Below are positions 1 through 10,848 of a stretch of 64,000 nucleotides of DNA, piece by piece. Each line of letters begins with the position of its first letter. Position 1 is the first letter of the stretch. Origin of the DNA: Dehalococcoidia bacterium (GTDB lineage Bacteria; Chloroflexota; Dehalococcoidia; UBA2979); NCBI GenBank assembly GCA_965237865.1, contig OZ250164.1, forward strand, positions 240,048 to 304,047, in the 5' to 3' direction. A program made the translations under genes and the position numbers. The notes beneath the pieces are model-generated. The model worked only from the letters and a program-made list of their open reading frames with translations. It searched no databases and was not told the origin of the DNA.

Positions 1-179
1 TGCTCTTCGCCGCGCTGCTCGTCAACCTCTGGTTCGGCGGCGACCTCGTGGAGGCGCTGGCCGGCCCCTACGTGCGGGGGCTGTTCGAGTTGATCCTGAT
101 CAGCGGCTACCTCTGGTTCGTCGTCGGCCTCGGGACGCTGCTGCGAGGCCGGACGGACGAGCCGCCGCCGCCCGGTTGA
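1..179 (+). CDS. 3' end of a membrane protein (partial)
   Basis: Open hydrophobic frame from position 3 (LFAALLVNLWFGG...YLWFVVGLGTLLRGRTDEPPPPG) ending TGA at 177-179. Confidence 0.7.
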   Translation, partial: LFAALLVNLWFGGDLVEALAGPYVRGLFELILISGYLWFVVGLGTLLRGRTDEPPPPG

Positions 180-201
180 CCCGCCGATTGACGCGCTCCT
201 A
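113..201 (+). repeat. Diverged direct repeat, copy 1 (89 bp)
   Basis: Aligns without gaps to 1791-1879, with 11 mismatches by manual count. Confidence 0.9.
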
Positions 202-335
202 CGGGCCCTGGACTTCCATCGTTCCACCCGTCTCCTGCTATGTCGGAAAAGCGGGCGGAGTATGACGGGCGATCAGGGATGCCCAACTCGTCCTTGTAGT
301 CATGCACATAGCTGGGGCGTGTTCAATGAATTCGT

Positions 336-1610
336 TTAGCACGCTCTTCGCTGCAACGGGTTACCTGTGACAGCCACGTATAGCGCCCAGGCGCCGGCCA
401 GGAGCACGGCTGCAACGAGAAACCCTCCCTGAAAGCCAATTCTGTCAGCAATCACAAATCCTGTGAGCGGGCCCAATGCCGCCCCCAGATCCAGCCAGGT
501 TGAATACCTGCCCATCACGGCGGCGCGTGTTGAGTCGGGCGATGTTTCGCCTATGGCCGCATCCAGTGCGGCGTTCACTCCCACGGATGCGATGAACAAC
601 AGCGGTATCCCAACGATCGCGGCGACCACGGAATCAAATGCGGCTATCAGGGCCAGCGAAGCAAACATTGCGGCCACTCCGTAGGCGATGGACGTCCGCC
701 TGCCCACGCGGTCCGAGAGGTGCCCCAGAGGTACGCCAAGGCCGAGGTCGGAGAACCACCTGAAACCAACCAGGAGGCCTGCAAGAGTAACCACGGCAAG
801 CGATCCTCCGAGTACCTTCCCGTTCTCATCAGCGAATTCAGCGAGGTAGGGAGCCACGGTAGCAATGGCCAGACCATTTGCCGCGAACGCTGTGGCGAAC
901 CGCATCAAGCTAATCGAGAGAAGGGGAAGCCTGAGCTTGCGGCCGTACCCCGGTAGTCTGGATACGGCGAGGTCCCAGGGATTCAGGCTGTTTCGCAAGC
1001 CTCCGCCAGATGATCGGATGCGCTCGGGCCTGAGGTTCGGGACCCGAGTGGCGATGATCACGCCGATCAGTCCGACGCCTGCCAGAGCTGTGAACGTCAC
1101 CTCCCTCGAGGTGAGTTGGAATAGCACCGCGCCGGCGGTGACTGCGATAAGACTGCCGAGCCGTTGACCGGAATTGAAGAACCCCATCAGTCTGCCCCGC
1201 ATTGCGGATGTACCGACCCCAAACGCCGTCAGCTGCGCCGCTAGTCGCATGTGCGAGTACGAAATGCCCCACACAGCGCGGGCCAGTAGCAGCGACACGA
1301 GACCGCTTCCCAGACCGTATGCAAGCGTCGTCAGAGCGCCGACGGCAATGGAAGCGACGAAAGGCCAACGCACACCAAACCGCTGGTACACAGGGGCAGC
1401 GAGGGCATTGCTGACCAGGCGAATGAAGCGGTTGATGCTGAGTGCAAACCCAATCCAGAATGACGCGGCAAGGCCGAAATGGTCACCGGCCCCAAATTCG
1501 GCCGCCGCCACGGGCAGCACGACGTACATCAGTGAGTCGCCCATGATGACGGCCGCGGTTGGGGCTACCGCATACACCATCCCGGCCGGAATCATCGGTC
1601 TGATACGCAT
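336..1610 (-). CDS. MFS transporter
   Basis: About 12 hydrophobic segments and MFS motif-A-like GHLSDRVGRR. Visibly lower GC than the flanks. Confidence 0.9.
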   Translation of the reverse strand: MRIRPMIPAGMVYAVAPTAAVIMGDSLMYVVLPVAAAEFGAGDHFGLAASFWIGFALSINRFIRLVSNALAAPVYQRFGVRWPFVASIAVGALTTLAYGLGSGLVSLLLARAVWGISYSHMRLAAQLTAFGVGTSAMRGRLMGFFNSGQRLGSLIAVTAGAVLFQLTSREVTFTALAGVGLIGVIIATRVPNLRPERIRSSGGGLRNSLNPWDLAVSRLPGYGRKLRLPLLSISLMRFATAFAANGLAIATVAPYLAEFADENGKVLGGSLAVVTLAGLLVGFRWFSDLGLGVPLGHLSDRVGRRTSIAYGVAAMFASLALIAAFDSVVAAIVGIPLLFIASVGVNAALDAAIGETSPDSTRAAVMGRYSTWLDLGAALGPLTGFVIADRIGFQGGFLVAAVLLAGAWALYVAVTGNPLQRRAC

Positions 1611-1790
1611 GCCTGGAGTGCGGCCTCCCTGACCTCGCCGTGGTCGCCAACTGTGGCACGCACGATGGGATGCCGTCGAGGAGTTCTACTTCTCGTCCGT
1701 GAGGCCCAGCAGTTCGTTCGACGTTGTGGTGAGGACATAACGGTCCTGCGAGTGAGTCATCGTTGGGTGGCCTGGCCCAGCCTTCTCCAG

Positions 1791-1879
1791 CTGGTTTGTC
1801 GTCGGCCTCGAGACGCTGCTGCGGCGCCGGCCGGGCGAACCGCCGCCGCGCGGTTGACCCGTCGATCGCCGCGCTCCTA
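1791..1879 (+). repeat. Diverged direct repeat, copy 2, carrying the -35 of the putative tRNA-Val promoter
   Basis: Matches 113-201. TTGACC(1854)-N18-TAGCAT(1878). Confidence 0.85.
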
Positions 1880-1933
1880 GCATCGAAGGCGGTAGCGGGC
1901 AGGGCGCACCCTCGAGCGGGCGCCTGTGCGCCG

Positions 1934-2010
1934 GGGCGATTAGCTCAGCAGGCCAGAGCGTCCGGTTTACACCCGGGAGGTCGGAGGTTCGAGCCCTCCA
2001 TCGCCCACCA
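1934..2010 (+). tRNA. tRNA-Val(TAC)
   Basis: GGGCGAT/ATCGCCC acceptor stem, anticodon loop TTTACAC, GGTTCGAG T-loop, encoded CCA. Confidence 0.97.
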
Positions 2011-2077
2011 TCCCCACGTGCGTGCGCTGCCCGTCGCCGGTCTCCTCGCCGATCATCGGGTTTGTCGGAGGTTGTTC

Positions 2078-2956
2078 ATGGTTACGGAACAGGTTCGCGA
2101 GGCGCCCTCGGGCGTGCCTGCACTGATCATCCTGCTGCTTGTGCTGCTGCTGGACATCGCGCTGATCGTGGTCGGCAGCGTGACCTGGCTCGAGGGAGGC
2201 TGGGTGCTGGTCACCATCGCCAGCGTGCTCTGTCCGATCATCCTCTTCTGCTTCGTCGGCTTGTTCGCCGTCCCGCCGAACGAGGCGCGCGTGCTCCAGC
2301 TGTTCGGGAGGTACGTCGGCACCGTGCGCAGTCCGGGGCTGCGCTACACCAACCCGCTCTACACCAAGCAGCGCATCTCCGTGCGGGTACGCAACTTCGA
2401 GACGACGCGCTCGAAGGTCAACGACACCGACGGCAATCCGATCGAGATGGCGGCCGTCGTCGTCTGGAAGGTGATGGACACGGCCGTGGCCACGTTCCAG
2501 GTGGACGACTACGTCAACTACGTGCACGTCCAGAGCGAGTCGGCGGTGCGCAACCTCGCGACCCACTACCCGTACGACACGCAGGAGGACGGGCAGCTCT
2601 CGCTGCGCGGCGATACGGAGGAGATCGCGGGCCAGCTGCAGGCGGAGATCCAGGGCCGGCTGGTCGAAGCCGGTGTCGAGGTCATGGAGGCGCGGATCAC
2701 ACACCTGGCCTACGCGCCGGAGATTGCCTCGGCGATGCTCCAGCGGCAGCAGGCGGGCGCGATCATCGCCGCCCGCACCCAGATCGTGGAGGGCGCTGTG
2801 AGCATGGTGCAGATGGCGCTCGATCAGCTGTCCGCGCGCAACGTCGTCGAGCTCGACGAGGAGCGGAAGGCAGCCATGGTCAGCAATCTGCTGGTCGTGC
2901 TGTGCGGGGACAGAAGCACGCAGCCGGTGCTGAATACTGACAGCTTCAACCGGTAA
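2078..2956 (+). CDS. SPFH/band 7 domain membrane protein
   Basis: GGAGG RBS before ATG 2078. Two N-terminal TM helices, then KVNDTDGNPIEMAAVVVWKV and HLAYAPEIASAMLQRQQA, typical of SPFH proteins. Confidence 0.92.
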   Translation: MVTEQVREAPSGVPALIILLLVLLLDIALIVVGSVTWLEGGWVLVTIASVLCPIILFCFVGLFAVPPNEARVLQLFGRYVGTVRSPGLRYTNPLYTKQRISVRVRNFETTRSKVNDTDGNPIEMAAVVVWKVMDTAVATFQVDDYVNYVHVQSESAVRNLATHYPYDTQEDGQLSLRGDTEEIAGQLQAEIQGRLVEAGVEVMEARITHLAYAPEIASAMLQRQQAGAIIAARTQIVEGAVSMVQMALDQLSARNVVELDEERKAAMVSNLLVVLCGDRSTQPVLNTDSFNR

Positions 2957-3072
2957 CGCGGCGCGCACGCGTGGCCGGGCCGCCCATAGTGTGACCGCCG
3001 GTTCGGAGGTGGCGCCGCCCGCCGTCAGGTGAGGGCCACCGAGGCGGCTCCCCCGCAGCTCAGGAGGTAGTT

Positions 3073-4829
3073 CTGGCGGCTTCCGCGCACCCCCGCTACG
3101 AGGCGCACGAGCGCCCGCCATTCCTCACGACCCTGGGTCTCGGTGCGCAGTTCAGCCTGATCGCGTCCGCCACGCTGCTGGTCACGCCTGTAATCGTCCC
3201 AACGCATCGGGCCGGGGCGAGCCGTATGTCGTGTGGATGGTCTTCGCCTCGCTGGTGGTTGTCGGGCTGTCCACGCTGCTGCAGGTGCGGCGGCTCGGCT
3301 TCGTCGGCGCCGGCGCGGTGCTGCCGATGTTCACGGCCGCCTTCGCGATCCCGTTCTGCATCACCGCGGTGGTTGACGGCGGGCCGGCGACGCTGACGAC
3401 GCTGCTGCTCGTCTCGGCGGGAGCCCAGCTCGCCATCTCGCGCTGGCTCTTCATCCTGAGGCGGGTCGTCACCCCGACCGTGAGCGGCACGGTGATGATG
3501 ATCCTCTCCATCACCCTCGCCTCCGTCGTGTTCGACCTGCTGGACGACGCCACGCAGGTAGAGCCCGAAGCGGCGTCGCTCACCGCGTTCGTGACTATGG
3601 TCGTCGCTGCCGCGCTGACGCTGCGCCGATCGCCGCTGCTGCGGTTCTGGGGGCCGATCGCCGGCATCATCGTTGGCTGCGTGGTGGCCGGGGCACTCGG
3701 TATCTTCGACACGGAGCGGGTGGCCGAGGCCGCCTGGGTGGGGCTCCCGCCCGAGCGGCCAGAGCTGGGGCTCGACTTCGGACTCGAGTTCTGGACGCTG
3801 GTGCCGGCGTTCCTGTTCCTTGGCGTGATCATCTCGATCCAGGCGAACGGCGCGGCCATCTCCATGCAGCGGGTCGCGTCGCGCGAGGACCGGGCGGTGG
3901 ACTTCCGCCAGGTGCAGGGAGCGGTGGCGGGAGGCGCCGCGAGCAACGTCCTCGCTGCCCTCGCTGCCGCGGTGCCCAACGCGATCAATCCTGGCATCGT
4001 GCCGTTCACGCAGATCACCGGCGTCGCCGCCCGCAGCCTCGGATACAGCATCGGCATCTTCTTCATCGTGCTGGCGTTTCTGCCGAAGGTGTCCGGGTTG
4101 CTGAGCAGCATCCCGGGGCCGGTGATGACGGGCTACCTGATCATGGTGACGGGCTCCCTCTTCGTCGACGGAGCGCGGACCGTGATCCAGAACGAACAGG
4201 ACAACGAGAAGATCGCGGTCGCCGGCGTCTGCTTCTGGATTGGCGCGGCCTTCCAGTTCAAGCTCTTTGCCCTGCCGGACCTCGGTCCGGTGCTGGGGGC
4301 GCTGCTCAAGAGCGGCATCACCACCGGCGGACTCGCCGCCGTCGTGATGATCCTCTACCTGGAGTTCACCAACCCGCGGCGCATGCGTTTCCAGTCCCGA
4401 CTCCACATCGACGCCCTGCCGGAACTCAACGCGTTCATCGCCAGATTCGCCGATCGCAGGGGCTGGGACGACCCGATGAAGGACCGGCTGAGCGCCGTGG
4501 CGGAGGAGACGCTCCTCACGCTCGCTCCCCTCGACCTGGAGGGACTCCTCGAAGGGAACGACGGCGACGACGAGGACAAGGAAGAGCGGCAGCTAATCGT
4601 GCTGGCATCCAGCGAGGGTCCGGTCGCGGACCTCGAGTTCATCGGCGGAGGAGACGACGAGAACATGGAGGACCGGATCCGGCAGCTCCAGCAGCACGAC
4701 TCGGAGACGATGGTCGAGCAGGACGTCTCGCTGCGGCTGCTGCGGAACTACGCCTCGTCCGTGCGCCATCAGCAGTTCCACGACACCGACATCATCACGG
4801 TCCGCGTCGACCCTCCCCGGGCGCGATGA
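3073..4829 (+). pseudogene. NCS2 (xanthine/uracil permease family) transporter with C-terminal RsbW/HATPase-like domain; frameshift near 3199
   Basis: AGGAGG then CTG at 3073 starts RYEAHERPPFLTTLGLGAQ...TPVIV. After a 1-nt shift it continues NASGRGEPYVVWMVF into ORF 3231-4829, which has NCS2-like motifs (QITGVAARSLG, FLPKVSGLLSSIPGPV). Confidence 0.75.
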
Positions 4830-4937
4830 GCGGCCGCAGTTGGCCTGTCCGAGCCGCACGTGCCCGGAGCGCCGCCGCGCCGTACCATTCCGATCCCGAA
4901 TCGCAGGACGCCGCGGCGGTGACCCGGATGAGGCTCA

Positions 4938-5210
4938 ATGGCTGATCCCGAACCGCCCTCGCAGCACTCCGGGGCGATCGAGGAGATGAACGTCGCCGAC
5001 GAGTGGGACGCGGGCGACATGGGATGCGGTGAGGTGATCATCCTGCTCAGGATGCGGATGCAGAAGCTCGGCCCCGGCGCAGTCCTCAAGCTGACCGCGC
5101 GCGACCTGGGCGCCCCCGCCGACATTCCGGCATGGTGCCGGCTCACAGGCCGCCGCTTGCTCCGCGAGGAACACCCGCACTACTGGATCGAGCAGACACG
5201 GAGCGCATAG
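4938..5210 (+). CDS. TusA-family sulfur carrier protein
   Basis: WDAGDMGCG...LGPGAVLKLTARDLGAPADIPAWCRLTG follows the TusA/SirA pattern. Confidence 0.88.
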   Translation: MADPEPPSQHSGAIEEMNVADEWDAGDMGCGEVIILLRMRMQKLGPGAVLKLTARDLGAPADIPAWCRLTGRRLLREEHPHYWIEQTRSA

Positions 5211-5232
5211 GCCAAAGGGAAGGGAAACCGTC

Positions 5233-5595
5233 TTGGCTGGAAAGTTCTGCGTGAGCCTGACCCACGCGGGGGAAGACCCCGACAGGGCGACGGTCGCCTT
5301 CGTCGTGGCCAACGCGGCGCTGGGGTCGGAGCAGGAGACCGTCGTCTTCCTCAGCACAGAGGGCGTCCGCCTCGCCGAGCGGGGCTACGCCGACGACATC
5401 CACGAGGACGGCTTCATGGCGCTCAGCGAGTTGATGGCTGCCTTCGCCGGCGGCGGCGGGGAGATCTACGTCTGCGCGCCCTGCTTCAACAAGCGCGGCC
5501 TCGACGCGGACAACCTGGTCGACGGCGCGGCGATGGTCGGTGGGGCGAAGCTGGTCGAGTTCCTCTCCGACGGCACCCCCTCCATCTCCTACTAG
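5233..5595 (+). CDS. DsrE/DsrF-family protein
   Basis: ATVAFVVANAA...VVFLSTEGVRL...IYVCAPCFNKRGL. Confidence 0.88.
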   Translation: MAGKFCVSLTHAGEDPDRATVAFVVANAALGSEQETVVFLSTEGVRLAERGYADDIHEDGFMALSELMAAFAGGGGEIYVCAPCFNKRGLDADNLVDGAAMVGGAKLVEFLSDGTPSISY

Positions 5596-5634
5596 CGCGC
5601 CTCGTCGCGATCGACTGCTGACAGACCACCCCCG

Positions 5635-7182
5635 ATGGACTCGATCGAGCGGCACACCCACGAGCCCGACGCCAGCTTCGACGGCGGCAACCTCGACTGC
5701 GGCGGGGGGCTGCTGCTGCTGATCCGGCGTCACATCGACCCGCTCGAACCCGGCGGTCTGCTCGAGATCCTCTCGACCGATTCGACGGTCGAGGTGGAGT
5801 TGCCCGCCTGGTGCCGCTTGACCAGCAACGAGCTCGTCTCGTGGACGAAGCGCGGAGAGCAGCGCAGCTTCCTGGTCTGCAAGGGCTCCCTCGAGGATCG
5901 CGCGCAGGCGGCGGCCGCGGCGCGCGAGGCGCCAGCGGTCGCGGCGCCCTCGGTGGGCACGTTCGGCGAGCAGCTCCGGGTCGCGGTCACGATTCCGGAC
6001 TCGCTTCCGCGGCCGGCCGCCGCGCCGGCGATAGCGCCGCTCTCTGTGATGGGTGTCGGCAGTTGGCCGCGGCCGCGCTGGATGCTGCAGGCGATGCACG
6101 ACCGCCTCGAAGGCAGGCTCGGCGAGACGGAGTTCCAGGCCACGGCGGACGACGCGGTCCGGCTGAGCGTCGCCGCGCAACTGCGGGCGGGCGCCGAGGT
6201 CGTGACCGACGGCGAGCAGCGCCGCGACAACTACGCCAGCTTCGTGGGCGGGCGCCTCGACAACTGCCAGCTGATCCCGCTCAGCGACCTGACCGCGATG
6301 GTCGACGACCCGTCCGAGTTCGAGCAGGAACTCCGCGCCCTCGATGTACCGGCCTCGGAGGTGCGCCATCCGGTGGTCTACGGGGCGCTCGGGCGGGGCC
6401 TCCCGCTCGCCGTTCACGAGCTGGAGTTCGCCGCGACCTGCACGGACGTCCCGCTGAAGGTCGCGCTGCCGGGGCCCTACCTGCTCACGCGCATGATGTG
6501 GCTCGACTGCCTCGCTGATCGCCCATACGAGACGCGCGAGGAGCTCGCGCGCGACGTGGTCCGCGTCCTGCGCGAGGAGGCGCACTTCCTGCTCGCCTCG
6601 GGCGCCGCGCTGGTGCAGTTCGACGAGCCGGTGCTGATGGAGGTGGTCCATGGCAGCGCGGGCGGCACGCGCAGCTTCATGTGCGGGGCGCTGAGCGAGC
6701 GGCTCGAATCGGCCTCGGAGCTGGACTTCGCCGCCGGGCTGCTGGACGAGGTGGTGCGCGGCCTCCCGGCGGAATCGCTGGCGCTGCACGTCTGCCGCGG
6801 CAACTGGACGCCCGACGAGTCCGCCGCCCTTGCCGGCGACTACCGGCCGCTGCTCGGCTTCCTCGGGCGGGCCGCGGTGGGCACGCTCTTCCTCGAGCTC
6901 TCCACGCCGCGCGCCGGGGAGATCGACGTGCTCCGCGATCTTCCGGAGGGCAAGCGCATCGGTGTCGGCGTCGTGAACCAGAAGCTCGTCGCCGTCGAGC
7001 CGGTCGAGGAGATCCGGCGGCGCATCGCGCGCGCGATCGAGCTCTTCGGCGAGGAGCGCGTGCTGCTCACGCCGGACTGCGGCTTCGCGACGTTCGCCGA
7101 CAACCCCGTCGCCTCTGCCGGCATCGCCGAGGCGAAGCTGCGGACGATCGTCGAGGCGCGCGACCTGATCCGCGCGCGCTGA
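5635..7182 (+). CDS. Fusion of an N-terminal TusA domain to a cobalamin-independent methionine synthase II (MetE C-terminal core-like) domain
   Basis: N-terminus FDGGNLDCGGG...LPAWCRLT. Then VGSWPRP, VVTDGEQRR, VQFDEP, Zn-ligand motifs HVCRGN and TPDCGF. Confidence 0.85.
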   Translation: MDSIERHTHEPDASFDGGNLDCGGGLLLLIRRHIDPLEPGGLLEILSTDSTVEVELPAWCRLTSNELVSWTKRGEQRSFLVCKGSLEDRAQAAAAAREAPAVAAPSVGTFGEQLRVAVTIPDSLPRPAAAPAIAPLSVMGVGSWPRPRWMLQAMHDRLEGRLGETEFQATADDAVRLSVAAQLRAGAEVVTDGEQRRDNYASFVGGRLDNCQLIPLSDLTAMVDDPSEFEQELRALDVPASEVRHPVVYGALGRGLPLAVHELEFAATCTDVPLKVALPGPYLLTRMMWLDCLADRPYETREELARDVVRVLREEAHFLLASGAALVQFDEPVLMEVVHGSAGGTRSFMCGALSERLESASELDFAAGLLDEVVRGLPAESLALHVCRGNWTPDESAALAGDYRPLLGFLGRAAVGTLFLELSTPRAGEIDVLRDLPEGKRIGVGVVNQKLVAVEPVEEIRRRIARAIELFGEERVLLTPDCGFATFADNPVASAGIAEAKLRTIVEARDLIRAR

Positions 7183-7338
7183 AGGGGGCACCGCCTCGCG
7201 GGAGCCCTCGAAGGTGACCGCGAGCCACCTGCTCACCCGCCGGGAGCGCGGTAGCGTTGATTCGCGCGGCTGCCTACACTCGGCGCACCGGCCGCCCCCG
7301 AGGGCGCGGCGCGGCGACGCAGCCGGCGGAGGAGCCCC

Positions 7339-8997
<1,659 letters not shown>

Positions 8998-9008
8998 AGA
9001 TTCCGAGG

Positions 9009-9039
9009 CCCTCTCCCTGGGGAGAGGGTTGGGGTGAGG
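9009..9039. repeat. REP-like palindromic element
   Basis: CCCTCTCCC-TG-GGGAGAGGG followed by TTGGGGTGAGG. Confidence 0.7.
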
Positions 9040-9045
9040 AGTCCC

Positions 9046-9537
9046 ATGCCTGACGCCGTCGACGCGATCATCGAACAGAACGCACAGGCGCGCGCCGATC
9101 TGCTGGACGCGATCGACGCGCTGCCCGGAGAGCGGCGCACCGAGGGCTGGTACGGCCCGGAGCAGTGGTCCGTGCAGGACGTGCTCGCGCACCTCGCCCG
9201 CTGGCAGGAGGGCTGGAGCCACGCGCTGCGCGCGGTCGTCGCCGGCGAGCGGCCCTCGGTGCCCGGCTACGAGCCCAACCGCGACGACCCGGACGCGGCC
9301 GACAACGCCTACAACGCGGCCTCCGTGGCGGAGCAGCGCGGGCAGTCATGGGAAGCCGTGATGGCGCGACTGCGCTCCGCCCGCGAGGAGCACGACGAGG
9401 CGATCCGCGCCCTGCGCGCGCTCGAGCCCGAGCGCTACGCCGAGGGCCGCACTCCGCACCGCCTCGCGGACTCCGCCGAACACGACCACGAGCACATCGA
9501 GGCGATCCGCGCCTGGCGACGGGAGCACGGCCTCTGA
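9046..9537 (+). CDS. DinB/DfsB-family four-helix bundle protein
   Basis: WSVQDVLAHLARW...EHDHEHIEAI; GAGGAG RBS. Confidence 0.8.
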   Translation: MPDAVDAIIEQNAQARADLLDAIDALPGERRTEGWYGPEQWSVQDVLAHLARWQEGWSHALRAVVAGERPSVPGYEPNRDDPDAADNAYNAASVAEQRGQSWEAVMARLRSAREEHDEAIRALRALEPERYAEGRTPHRLADSAEHDHEHIEAIRAWRREHGL

Positions 9538-10346
9538 TCGACCTGCTGCACCACATGGGAGTCGTCGTACCCGACGCCGATGAGGCGTTGGGCTTCTACC
9601 GCGACGTTATGGGCCTGAGCGTCGCGAAGGACGAGATCGTCGAGGAGCAGGGCGTGCGCGGCGTGCTGCTTCCGATCGGCGAGAACGAGATCGAGCTGCT
9701 CCAGCCGGTCCGCGAAGACACCGGCGTGGCGCGCTTCCTCGAGAGCCGCGGCCCCACGCTGCACCACATCTGCCTGCGCACGGACGACATCCGCGCCGAG
9801 CTGGCGCGCATCCGGGCGCTCGGCCTCGAGCTGATCGACGAGGAGCCGCGCTACGGGTTGGCCGGCGAGATCGCCTTCATCCACCCGCGCTCGATGCACG
9901 GCGTGCTGGTCGAGCTCGCCGAGGTCGAGGACCGCCACACCTCGCCCGACAAGGGCTTCGATCACATCGCCTGCCGCGTGGCGGACTACGACGCAGCGCA
10001 GCGGCGCTGGGGCGAGGTCGCCGGCCTCGAGGAGCACGCGCGGCTCAACGTCGAGGAGTCGGGGATGCTGATCGGGCAGTTCCCGATCGGGCAGTGCATG
10101 CTCGAACTGCTCGCGCCGAACGGGCCGGACTCGCCGCTTGCGCAGGCGATCGAGGAGCAACGCGAAGGCGCCTCCCCGATGGTGGCGATCGAGGTCGCGG
10201 ACCTCGATGCGGAGATCGCCCGTTACCGGGCGGCCGGGCTCGACGTGCCGGACGCGGACGTAGGGGTCCTGCCGGGGACGCGGCGCTCGGGGATTGGCGC
10301 GGAGCAGGCGTTCGGCATCCGCATCCAACTGCTGGAGTACGTCTAG
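9534..10346 (+). CDS. Methylmalonyl-CoA epimerase-like protein with two tandem VOC modules; CTG start
   Basis: LHHMGVVV...EQGVR...IELLQP...LHHICL...[16 protein letters not shown], then a second FDHIA...LELLAP...IQLLEY module. CTGA overlap with the upstream stop. Confidence 0.85.
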
Positions 10347-10431
10347 TCCGCGAACTCGCGCAGCCGCGCGGGGCTCGCTAGACTCGCCTGCGAGATCGGC
10401 GCGCGCTTCGCGCAACGAGGAGACCCCCCAG

Positions 10432-10842
10432 ATGGCTGACGAACAGGCGATTCGCGTGCTGATCGCGAAGCCCGGCCTCGACGGGCATGACCGCGGCGCC
10501 AAGGTGGTGGCGCGCGCCCTGCGCGATGCCGGCATGGAAGTGATCTACACCGGCATCCGGCAGACCCCGGAAATGATCGCGGAGGCGGCGCTGCAGGAAG
10601 ACGTGCAGGTCGTCGGGCTCTCGATCCTCTCGGGCGCGCACCTCGAGCTGTTCCCCCGCGTGGTGAACGCCCTCGATGAGCGCGGGGTGAGCGACGTGCT
10701 GCTCTTCTGCGGCGGGATCATTCCCGAGGCCGACATCGCGACGGTTCAGGAGATGGGCTTCTCGGGCGTCTTCGGCCCGGGCACCAACACCCAGTCGATC
10801 ATCGAGTTCGTCCGCGAGAACGCGGCGAGCCCGACCGCCTGA
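10432..10842 (+). CDS. Methylmalonyl-CoA mutase, cobalamin-binding subunit
   Basis: [14 protein letters not shown] (DxHxxG) motif; GAGGAG RBS. Confidence 0.95.
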
Positions 10843-10848
10843 GGCCAG

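Follow-up and report, generated by a model that had tools for sequence, protein, structure and literature searches.

A conserved gene cassette joining TusA-like and DsrE-like cysteine carriers to a MetE-fold zinc protein, with a probable role in selenium or sulfur handling

Layout of the three genes and properties of their products

Three genes at positions 4938-7182 were analyzed in a window of 64,000 nucleotides, which is the whole stretch of DNA studied here (Dehalococcoidia bacterium, GenBank assembly GCA_965237865.1, contig OZ250164.1, positions 240,048 to 304,047 of the forward strand; positions below are those of the window). The open reading frame (ORF) listing gave three + strand frames separated by intergenic gaps of 22 and 39 bases. 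The first is a tusA-like carrier gene (4938..5210, +) encoding 90 amino acids (aa), with C30 at codon 5025-5027 and C67 at codon 5136-5138. It is followed by a dsrE-like carrier gene (5233..5595, +; 120 aa) with a CxxC motif formed by C81 (codon 5473-5475) and C84 (codon 5482-5484). The third gene (5635..7182, +; 515 aa) encodes a TusA::MetE-like fusion, in which an N-terminal TusA-like domain (5635..5910, residues 1 to about 92; C22 at codon 5698-5700 and C60 at codon 5812-5814) is joined by an Ala/Pro-rich linker (5911..6045, residues about 93-137, placed from model confidence and alignments) to a single-barrel MetE-like zinc domain of the Meth_synt_2 type (6046..7182, residues about 138-515; C211 at 6265-6267, C292 at 6508-6510 and C350 at 6682-6684). 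The ORF listing and the Pfam matches given below bore out the preliminary description of this DNA, which had reported three co-oriented, closely spaced genes of tusA-like, dsrE-like and TusA::MetE-like type. All of the motifs named in it were found: the first protein has GCGE and PAWC, the second VCAPCF, and the third DCGGG, PAWC, SFMCG, HVC and PDCG.

A TACCAT sequence near position 4883 had been proposed as a -10 element of these genes. The hexamer was read there (4883..4888, +), but a consensus scan of positions 4600-7500 found no promoter-like and no terminator-like site, and because no promoter-like site was found we regard TACCAT as a hexamer and nothing more. No riboswitch or other RNA motif reached the gathering score in 8 diverse cassette loci, and an RNA family scan of window positions 1-12000 returned only a tRNA and two sub-threshold matches, with no S-adenosylmethionine (SAM) or other riboswitch.

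TusA and DsrE proteins are established persulfide (sulfur) carriers. The stand-alone TusA-like protein scored 31.1 bits on Pfam TusA (PF01206, cut-off 28.6), and the fused TusA domain (residues 27-83) scored 26.3 bits, just below that cut-off. On the TusA equivalog model NF001423 (cut-off 78) the two scored 30.2 and 22.9 bits, respectively, so that the stand-alone protein is no TusA equivalog. The AlphaFold2 model of the fused domain has a beta-alpha-beta-beta-alpha-beta fold at residues 13-96, with a predicted local distance difference test value (pLDDT) of about 77-95. The DsrE-like protein scored 54.9 bits on Pfam DsrE (PF02635, cut-off 22.7). Its homologues were 59-92% identical across phyla, and its CxxC (VCAPCF; C81, C84) was invariant in 33/33 aligned homologues. 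An alignment by eye to TusD/DsrE motifs suggests that the position of the DsrE active-site Cys is kept. The motif described around the active Cys of TusA, CPxP (PMC5322559), was found in neither TusA-like sequence: C30 of the stand-alone protein lies in GCGE and C22 of the fusion in DCGGG, and the C-G in place of CPxP was invariant in all 28 stand-alone and all 45 fusion sequences. C30 and C67 (the latter in PAWC) were also invariant in 28/28 aligned homologues of the stand-alone protein.

The pair of carriers was compared with two known arrangements. Like the TusA-DsrE/TusBCD relays of sulfur oxidation and tRNA thiolation, the cassette has both carrier folds, but it lacks a desulfurase, rhodanese, DsrC, Hdr or tRNA enzyme; its endpoint is a MetE-fold zinc enzyme, and each carrier has a second invariant Cys. 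YedF (TIGR03527), as it is presented by Lin et al. (2015, PMC5322559), is a fusion of TusA-like and DsrE-like (CGXC) parts that is statistically tied to SelD. The likeness to the cassette consists of TusA/SirA-like and DsrE-like modules occurring together, a CxxC in the DsrE part, and co-occurrence with SelD. In contrast, the cassette has two separate genes with CG instead of CPxP, and YedF has no MetE-like partner. Neither the TusA-like nor the DsrE-like protein matched the YedF model (TIGR03527) at E <= 0.01 in the NCBIfam scan.

The MetE-like part of the fusion was then examined. Pfam Meth_synt_2 matched residues 141-490 with 81.9 bits and no Meth_synt_1 (folate-side) domain was found, so that the two-barrel build of MetE is absent and the description of a TusA domain fused to a single MetE-like barrel without the folate-binding half held. 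Conservation was measured in 72 fusion sequences, namely that of the window and 71 from genome loci. The zinc ligands H385, C387, E421 and C482 were invariant in 72/72, and likewise in the 45-sequence alignment. The homocysteine-binding triad S143, E194 and D330, which aligns to Ser22, Glu73 and Asp188 of the structure 3RPD (residue numbers as printed in PMC7857596), was invariant in 72/72 as well. Since both the zinc ligands and the triad are invariant, the barrel should, as judged from these residues, bind homocysteine or an isosteric amino-acid thiol or selenol at zinc. C22, C211, C292 and C350 were also invariant in 72/72, and C60 (PAWC) was present in 70/72. In an alignment with Thermotoga maritima MetE (1XDJ), C292 lies three residues after a Trp that aligns with the MSW motif, and C350 lies in the loop after the DEP strand; both regions presumably line the folate side in MetE.

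The AlphaFold2 model of the fusion (45 sequences) had a mean pLDDT of 82.4 and a predicted template-modelling score (pTM) of 0.74. The sequence of the linker was not conserved across homologues, and its pLDDT fell below 50 at residues 98-112. When the TusA domain (residues 1-92) and the barrel (residues 125-515) were submitted to complex prediction, the score was 0.15 against a mark of 0.32, which has no bearing either way. A TGA flagged inside the match of one homologue (G568) was an ordinary stop codon, and a selenocysteine in the fusion was rejected. In another genome of the window's genus (G002, contig C204, locus L013) the fusion is spread over two frames, residues 1-140 and 141-514, which may be natural or may stem from a frameshift or a fault in the assembly.

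By sequence search the best solved relative was 3RPD (E 3e-21, 79 bits). Foldseek also ranked it first (TM-score 0.80 on the target, 22% identity), followed by MetE C-terminal barrels. 3RPD is MesD of Shewanella (Price et al., 2021, PMC7857596), a source in which kinship bit scores of 174 for MesA, 173 for MesB and 560 for MesD were used, and the 79 bits to 3RPD do not amount to close kinship with a characterised core synthase. Family membership was judged by the cut-offs of curated NCBIfam models. The best model was the 'methionine synthase' equivalog PRK04326, with 139 bits against a cut-off of 406, and the best proteobacterial core-synthase model, PRK09121, which we assume to stand for MesD, gave 96 bits against 392. 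The MetE models (TIGR01371/PRK05222), with cut-offs of 929.95 and 541 bits, gave 55.4 and 64.6 bits, respectively. The 15 nearest unfused relatives likewise fell below every curated cut-off. All methionine-synthase models thus scored at most 139 bits against cut-offs of 258-930, in agreement with the earlier placement of the enzyme outside characterised families, and by these cut-offs the predicted fusion enzyme is a member of no characterised family.

MesD resembles the fusion in having a single MetE-type barrel without a folate-side domain, identical zinc ligands and the same Ser/Glu/Asp triad. It is the best match in both sequence and fold, and it depends on a partner protein whose chemistry is described as unknown (PMC7857596). 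However, the two share 22% identity, and the fusion has a fused TusA domain, three extra invariant Cys, and TusA-like and DsrE-like partners. The C-terminal barrel of MetE (T. maritima 1XDJ and others) shares the fold, the zinc site and the homocysteine site, whereas the fusion lacks the N-terminal folate barrel and scored 55-65 bits against MetE cut-offs of 541-930.

Distribution of the cassette and its importer-bearing form

A widespread conserved cassette is built around these three genes. A scan of a genome collection gave at least 383 confirmed loci and a scan of metagenomes at least 512, and the best 80 of each were read. The order tusA-dsrE-fusion recurred in genome and metagenome loci of more than ten phyla, so the co-occurrence of the three genes extends beyond this genome, a point that the preliminary description had named as a test of its proposal. 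Of the best 80 genome loci, 74 had DsrE next to the fusion and 66 had TusA; the corresponding figures for the best 80 metagenome loci, many of which are short, were 66 and 57. The best 80 genome loci came from Dehalococcoidia, Terriglobia, Latescibacterota, Rokubacteria/Methylomirabilota, Burkholderiales, Nitrospirillum, Pseudolabrys, Planctomycetota, Binatia, Pedosphaera, Eisenbacteria, Thermoanaerobaculia and Actinomycetota, and the Burkholderiales carriers include the cultured Duganella alba, D. levis and D. aceris. Fusion proteins were 60-91% identical across Chloroflexota, Acidobacteriota, Latescibacterota, Methylomirabilota, Planctomycetota, Pseudomonadota, Binatia, Actinomycetota and others, and identities of 60-75% across phyla point to strong selection and horizontal spread. 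A word-indexed protein search returned 5,577 proteins at E <= 0.001 among 8,000 scored candidates; the best 120 of them were all 498-702 aa long and at least 73% identical, and among the source annotations the one name found was of MetE type. An exhaustive search of 50%-identity representatives gave 173 matches at E <= 1e-30. Within the window's genus, the fusion was present in 11 of the 19 genomes (G000-G018).

The flanks outside the three genes varied by lineage. A transglutaminase-like neighbour was seen in 5/80 and 14/80 loci, and a second DsrE-like gene lay near the cassette in 9 loci. Variant cassettes were also found. One form in Planctomycetota consists of transglutaminase-like, tusA, dsrE and unfused MetE-like genes, and a further one of DsrE, OsmC, MetE-like and TusA genes. 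The unfused MetE-like proteins of three variant cassettes (L191, L192, L105) were 42-48% identical to the fusion proteins, and the unfused Planctomycetota form (44% identical) keeps, of the three extra Cys, only the equivalent of C350. In a further Dehalococcoidia genome (G025), an unfused homologue of 42% identity lies beside rhodanese, OsmC, AhpD-like and methylenetetrahydrofolate reductase (MTHFR)-like genes. A literature search of the main texts of papers turned up nothing on either the fusion or the cassette. Each part is of a known fold family; the combination, with an importer added in many genomes, is not a known one. The proposal of an undescribed, conserved system that joins Cys carriers to a MetE-fold zinc enzyme is upheld by the gene order across phyla and by the scores below the cut-offs.

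Some loci have an importer in addition. PhnD and PhnE homologues stood beside the cassette in 13 and 14 of the best 80 genome loci and in 11 and 12 of the best 80 metagenome loci, respectively. The importer-bearing cassettes belong to Burkholderiales, Alphaproteobacteria and Rokubacteria-type loci and show two gene orders, importer-tusA-dsrE-fusion and tusA-dsrE-importer-fusion. PhnE and PhnC scored above their curated cut-offs, and the binding protein scored above the cut-off of the phosphate/phosphite/phosphonate subfamily. The cassette-linked binding protein matched HtxB of Pseudomonas stutzeri (PDB 5ME4/6EMN) with E 1.4e-82 and 280 bits. The pocket of HtxB is described as W52, P71, Y97, N128, T129, S130, F158, M176, R178 and D206 (PMC6629693). 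In all 23 cassette-linked binding proteins the series W-P-Y-N-T-S-F-M-R-D of HtxB was replaced by W-P-Y-S-T-S-H-F-R-D, with F at the eighth place in 22 and Y in 1. Seven of the ten pocket residues (W52, P71, Y97, T129, S130, R178 and D206) are therefore kept as in HtxBCDE of P. stutzeri (5ME4, 6EMN; PMC6629693), and N128S, F158H and M176F/Y were seen in 23/23. The constancy of N128S, F158H and M176F across proteins that are only 60% identical to one another argues for a conserved ligand distinct from hypophosphite. In contrast to HtxBCDE, these importer genes sit among Cys-carrier genes and not among htxA and C-P lyase genes. The preliminary description was silent on the HtxB-type importer, on the selenium-gene context described below, and on three further invariant Cys, C211 and C292 among them.

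Selenium, sulfur and other readings of the cassette

A selD or selB gene lies near the cassette in four lineages. In three loci (L091, L107 and L108) selD comes after the fusion, past a gene for a Cys-rich secreted protein of 169 aa and a terminator-like run. The secreted protein (L091 positions 1929-2438; also in L107 and L108) is CxxC-rich and gave no Pfam or NCBIfam match. In one Burkholderiales lineage (L058, L065, L079 and L116) a pyridoxal phosphate (PLP) enzyme like cystathionine beta-synthase (CBS) and selD are convergent to the cassette; this pair may be a separate small-molecule selenium pathway. The CBS-like enzyme of these loci fell short of the cut-off of the cystathionine beta-synthase model (464 against 510 bits), and their selD ORF, taken from its first in-frame start, has about 120 aa upstream of the SelD match. 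In locus L151 the importer and a gene for an oxidoreductase::SelD fusion are 2.9 kb apart. In six Tepidiformaceae loci and in genome G029, selB and a HemW-like radical-SAM gene lie about 3.5 kb off; the arrangement in G029 is different, and the proximity of selB there may reflect shared ancestry. Two candidates were discarded: a 'SelD' match in L166 was a thiamine-phosphate kinase, and a thioredoxin-reductase-like gene beside the importer in L151 recurred in no other locus.

The presence of SelD in carrier genomes was also determined. Of 43 carrier genomes, 41 gave a SelD-family match above the curated cut-off: 12/12 among the window's relatives, 5/5 named or metagenome-assembled genomes, 4/4 further Burkholderiaceae, 14/15 in a set of one genome per lineage, 1/1 further alphaproteobacterial genome and 5/6 further Planctomycetota. 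In comparison, SelD was present in 2/14 well-known control genomes, and the selenium trait is given as present in 36-45% of bacteria by Lin et al. (2015, PMC5322559). In Alphaproteobacteria 3/3 carriers had SelD against 30/150 other genomes (20%); about 11 of these 30 background matches, counted among the listed rows, were of the short type with E < 1e-105. In Planctomycetota, SelD was found in 18/18 genomes with the unfused variant cassette, and when fused and unfused cassettes were pooled, in 24/25 genomes against 124/176 (Fisher p 0.003, with kin not independent). Only these two contrasts, the alphaproteobacterial alone and the pooled Planctomycetota, are informative, and because related genomes are not independent the co-occurrence figures overstate the case.

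The cassette probably handles selenium or sulfur and not ordinary methionine synthesis. Our preferred reading, which is tentative and has somewhat less than an even chance of being right, is that it is a selenium acquisition and trafficking module serving SelD. In outline, the Cys-pair carriers and the linker-tethered TusA domain would pass a chalcogen to or from the zinc site of the MetE-fold enzyme. In the six-gene form, the ABC importer could bring selenite or methylseleninate, both small Se(IV) oxyanions, into the cell. The carrier thiols together with C211, C292 and C350 of the barrel would then reduce this anion and hold it as a selenenyl-sulfide; reduction of a Se(IV) oxyanion takes three to four thiols, which the extra cysteines could supply. 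The tethered TusA domain might present its Cys-bound cargo at the face of the barrel that meets methyl-folate in MetE or the donor protein in core synthases. There, a zinc-activated homocysteine thiolate would remove an alkyl (methyl) group from the carrier-bound selenium to give methionine, or would alternatively exchange with the carrier-bound selenium in some other way. A TusA-Cys-S-Se(-) would be left behind, and DsrE and TusA would relay its selenium to SelD. We favour selenium because the removal of methyl from a carrier-bound methyl-selenide would be the chemically simplest use of an intact homocysteine-methylating site, and because TusA-S-Se(-) would be a good leaving group and also a form that could be relayed to SelD. 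It is a bolder and unlikely proposition that the six-gene form is the first dedicated high-affinity pathway for selenium uptake and processing, with methionine as a by-product, and that the three-gene form is its intracellular half.

A partial parallel to this selenium scheme is found in the account of Methanococcus maripaludis in PMC11097638, in which selenium starvation induces TusA/TusD-like genes, parts of a phosphonate-type ABC transporter and methyl-selenide methyltransferases. If the cassette serves selenium, the methyl-selenide demethylation system SdmABC of Methanococcus, as cited there, would be alike in two respects: a zinc methyltransferase of the wider UROD/MetE superfamily releases selenium from its methylated form under selenium shortage, and TusA/TusD-like genes are induced alongside. 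However, SdmABC needs a corrinoid protein and coenzyme M as acceptor, and the likeness is one of description. According to the cited passages of PMC11097638, no dedicated selenium transporter is known, nor how selenium passes to SelD; a selenium function of the cassette, if true, would address both the missing transporter and the hand-over to SelD.

Several observations weigh against a selenium function. About 142 of the 160 loci had no selenium gene in the sequence examined. In the window's own genome (G000, 93% complete) selA lies 77 kb and selD about 2.2 Mb from the cassette, and no HtxB-like binding protein was found there. All 19 genomes of the genus have SelD and 11/19 have the cassette, so that selenium use as such does not depend on it. 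Two carriers (G131 and G559, completeness unknown) gave no SelD match, and three of the 41 positive carriers (G127, G137 and G510) had only an oxidoreductase::SelD-type frame of about 750-800 aa. SelD was also found in 23/29 cassette-free Dehalococcoidia relatives and in 65/76 cassette-free Burkholderiaceae, and in Planctomycetota the fused form gave 6/7 against 142/194 genomes without it (Fisher p 0.41). Because SelD is common in most of the sampled clades, the co-occurrence says little, and with a background of 73-86% it was rejected as a discriminator in Dehalococcoidia, Burkholderiaceae and, for the fused form, Planctomycetota. The removal of methyl from selenium is purely our inference, and a thiolate is expected to attack selenium or sulfur faster than carbon. 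In addition, TusA and DsrE are classically sulfur carriers, and some neighbours belong to the sulfur and methionine side, namely metY (5 Binatia loci) and sulfatases (5 loci).

The sulfur analogue, the main rival, fits most of the facts used for selenium apart from the selenium-gene context, and we consider it possible but doubtful. In this version the carriers would shuttle sulfane sulfur (persulfide) or methyl-persulfide, which the zinc domain would pair with homocysteine or activated homoserine, for example in a PLP-independent homocysteine or methionine route or in the harvest of sulfur from an imported organosulfur compound or oxy-sulfur anion (sulfite, thiosulfate). The established persulfide chemistry of TusA and DsrE and the conserved homocysteine triad favour it. 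So does the neighbourhood: an O-acetylhomoserine sulfhydrylase gene is divergent beside the cassette in the 5 Binatia loci, sulfatases flank it in 5 loci, and the unfused homologue of G025 (42%) lies with rhodanese, OsmC, AhpD-like and MTHFR-like genes. Moreover, the PF01053 enzyme, MetX and HcyBio were found in none of the 19 genus genomes, with the PF01053 control matched in 13/14, so that no known homocysteine route was found in the genus. However, the 8 cassette-free members of the genus lack those routes too, and the cassette is therefore no simple substitute for a homocysteine route; a substitution for the known routes was ruled out, since they were not found with or without the cassette. 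Large-genome Proteobacteria also carry it, and in such larger genomes it may have a role in supplying homocysteine or methionine. The absence of a SAM/methionine riboswitch from the 8 loci and from window positions 1-12000 also speaks against the sulfur version, which leaves the adjacency of selD and selB unexplained, and the importer is of the phosphite/hypophosphite type and not of the sulfate/thiosulfate or sulfonate type. As a separate observation, Dehalococcoidia of this genus either import homocysteine or methionine or use an unknown homocysteine route; MetA (PF04204) was not searched. If the sulfur version is true, the cassette would be a new coupling of protein persulfides to homocysteine/methionine chemistry and would matter for the many Dehalococcoidia that showed no known homocysteine route in the present searches. 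Both the selenium and the sulfur reading could be tested directly in cultured carriers (D. alba FT9W, D. levis CY42W, D. aceris SAP-35 and Nitrospirillum sp. BR 11164).

The preliminary description had also considered folate-independent methionine synthesis. The fusion could accordingly be a plain core methionine synthase of a fifth type, with TusA and DsrE in the part that MesX plays for MesD, that of supplying or regenerating the methyl donor. Among solved and characterised proteins its nearest relative is indeed MesD (3RPD), which also needs a partner of unknown chemistry by the account in PMC7857596, and the zinc and homocysteine residues are intact. This explanation is nevertheless improbable, since no methionine-synthase equivalog model gave more than 139 bits against cut-offs of 258-930, and a cysteine thioether is expected on chemical grounds to be a poor methyl donor. 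The need for such an enzyme is likewise not evident: the genome has a separate full-length MetE (PF01717, 491.6 bits, in an 826-aa frame), a MetE-like match was found in all 19 genus genomes, and no SAM or other riboswitch was detected. No corrinoid gene or gene of MesX type or size recurs among the cassette neighbours examined. MesX itself (DUF1852, PF08908) gave no match in the window's genome, but the same search matched none of the 14 control genomes. This explanation would also fail to account for the importer and for the three extra invariant Cys.

The many invariant Cys could instead form a relay that detoxifies or redox-buffers selenite, tellurite, arsenite, peroxides or another thiophilic metalloid or oxidant. 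OsmC-like, AhpD-like, GST-like and thioredoxin-reductase-like genes beside some variants are in line with this, as is a class I methyltransferase resembling arsenite methyltransferase near the cassette in 6/80 loci, for which family scores were weak. Detoxification would, however, call for the reverse of an ATP-driven high-affinity importer, neither an efflux pump nor a metalloregulator recurs, and the conserved homocysteine site would have no explanation, which makes such a function very improbable. About as improbable is the use of reduced phosphorus, in which hypophosphite or phosphite would be imported and oxidised by the Cys/Zn proteins, e.g. via thiophosphate, sulfane sulfur being the oxidant. 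In its favour, the binding protein is closely homologous to HtxB (E 1.4e-82) with 7/10 pocket residues kept, the capping Trp included, and PhnE and PhnC exceed their cut-offs. Against it, three pocket residues differ in 23/23 binding proteins, no htxA or ptxD-like gene recurs beside the cassette, about 66/80 genome and 68/80 metagenome loci have no importer and none was found in the window's genome, and the homocysteine site would have no role.

Neighbouring genes and other features of the window

An NCS2-family permease gene lies upstream of the cassette (3231..4829, +; Pfam Xan_ur_permease, 93.3 bits). Its product ends in a domain of about 150 aa of no known family; the C-terminal 153 aa, on the predicted cytoplasmic side, had no Pfam match at E <= 1. 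The permease had been linked to the cassette through a proposed salvage of thio-nucleobases. It adjoins the cassette in 11/11 carrier genomes of the genus, but this adjacency is bound to the genus, with 4/80 genome loci elsewhere. The permease family, noted also in G003, G013 and G018, has up to 7 same-length matches per genome in the genus (40-76% identical), and copies that are 75-76% identical were present in 3/5 cassette-free members. The 4/80 loci and the copies in cassette-free members rule it out as the importer of the cassette beyond the genus, and the permease is probably a neighbour and not part of the system.

Directly 3' of the cassette is a methylmalonyl-CoA operon (7339-11814), whose synteny is confined to the genus. 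It comprises genes for the large subunit of methylmalonyl-CoA mutase (7339-8997), a DinB-like protein (9034-9537), a two-domain glyoxalase-type protein that is probably the epimerase (within 9165-10346), a B12-binding subunit (within 10294-10842) and MeaB (10849-11814).

Further upstream, a tRNA gene (1934-2007, +; Rfam tRNA, 66.3 bits) overlaps the listed ORF 1763-2956. The Band_7/SPFH match of this ORF begins at residue 170, which together with the overlap suggests that its true start is probably downstream of the tRNA. Lastly, positions 20001-26000 of the window have a G+C content of 0.60-0.65, compared with about 0.70 elsewhere, and a raised GC skew of 0.10-0.14.

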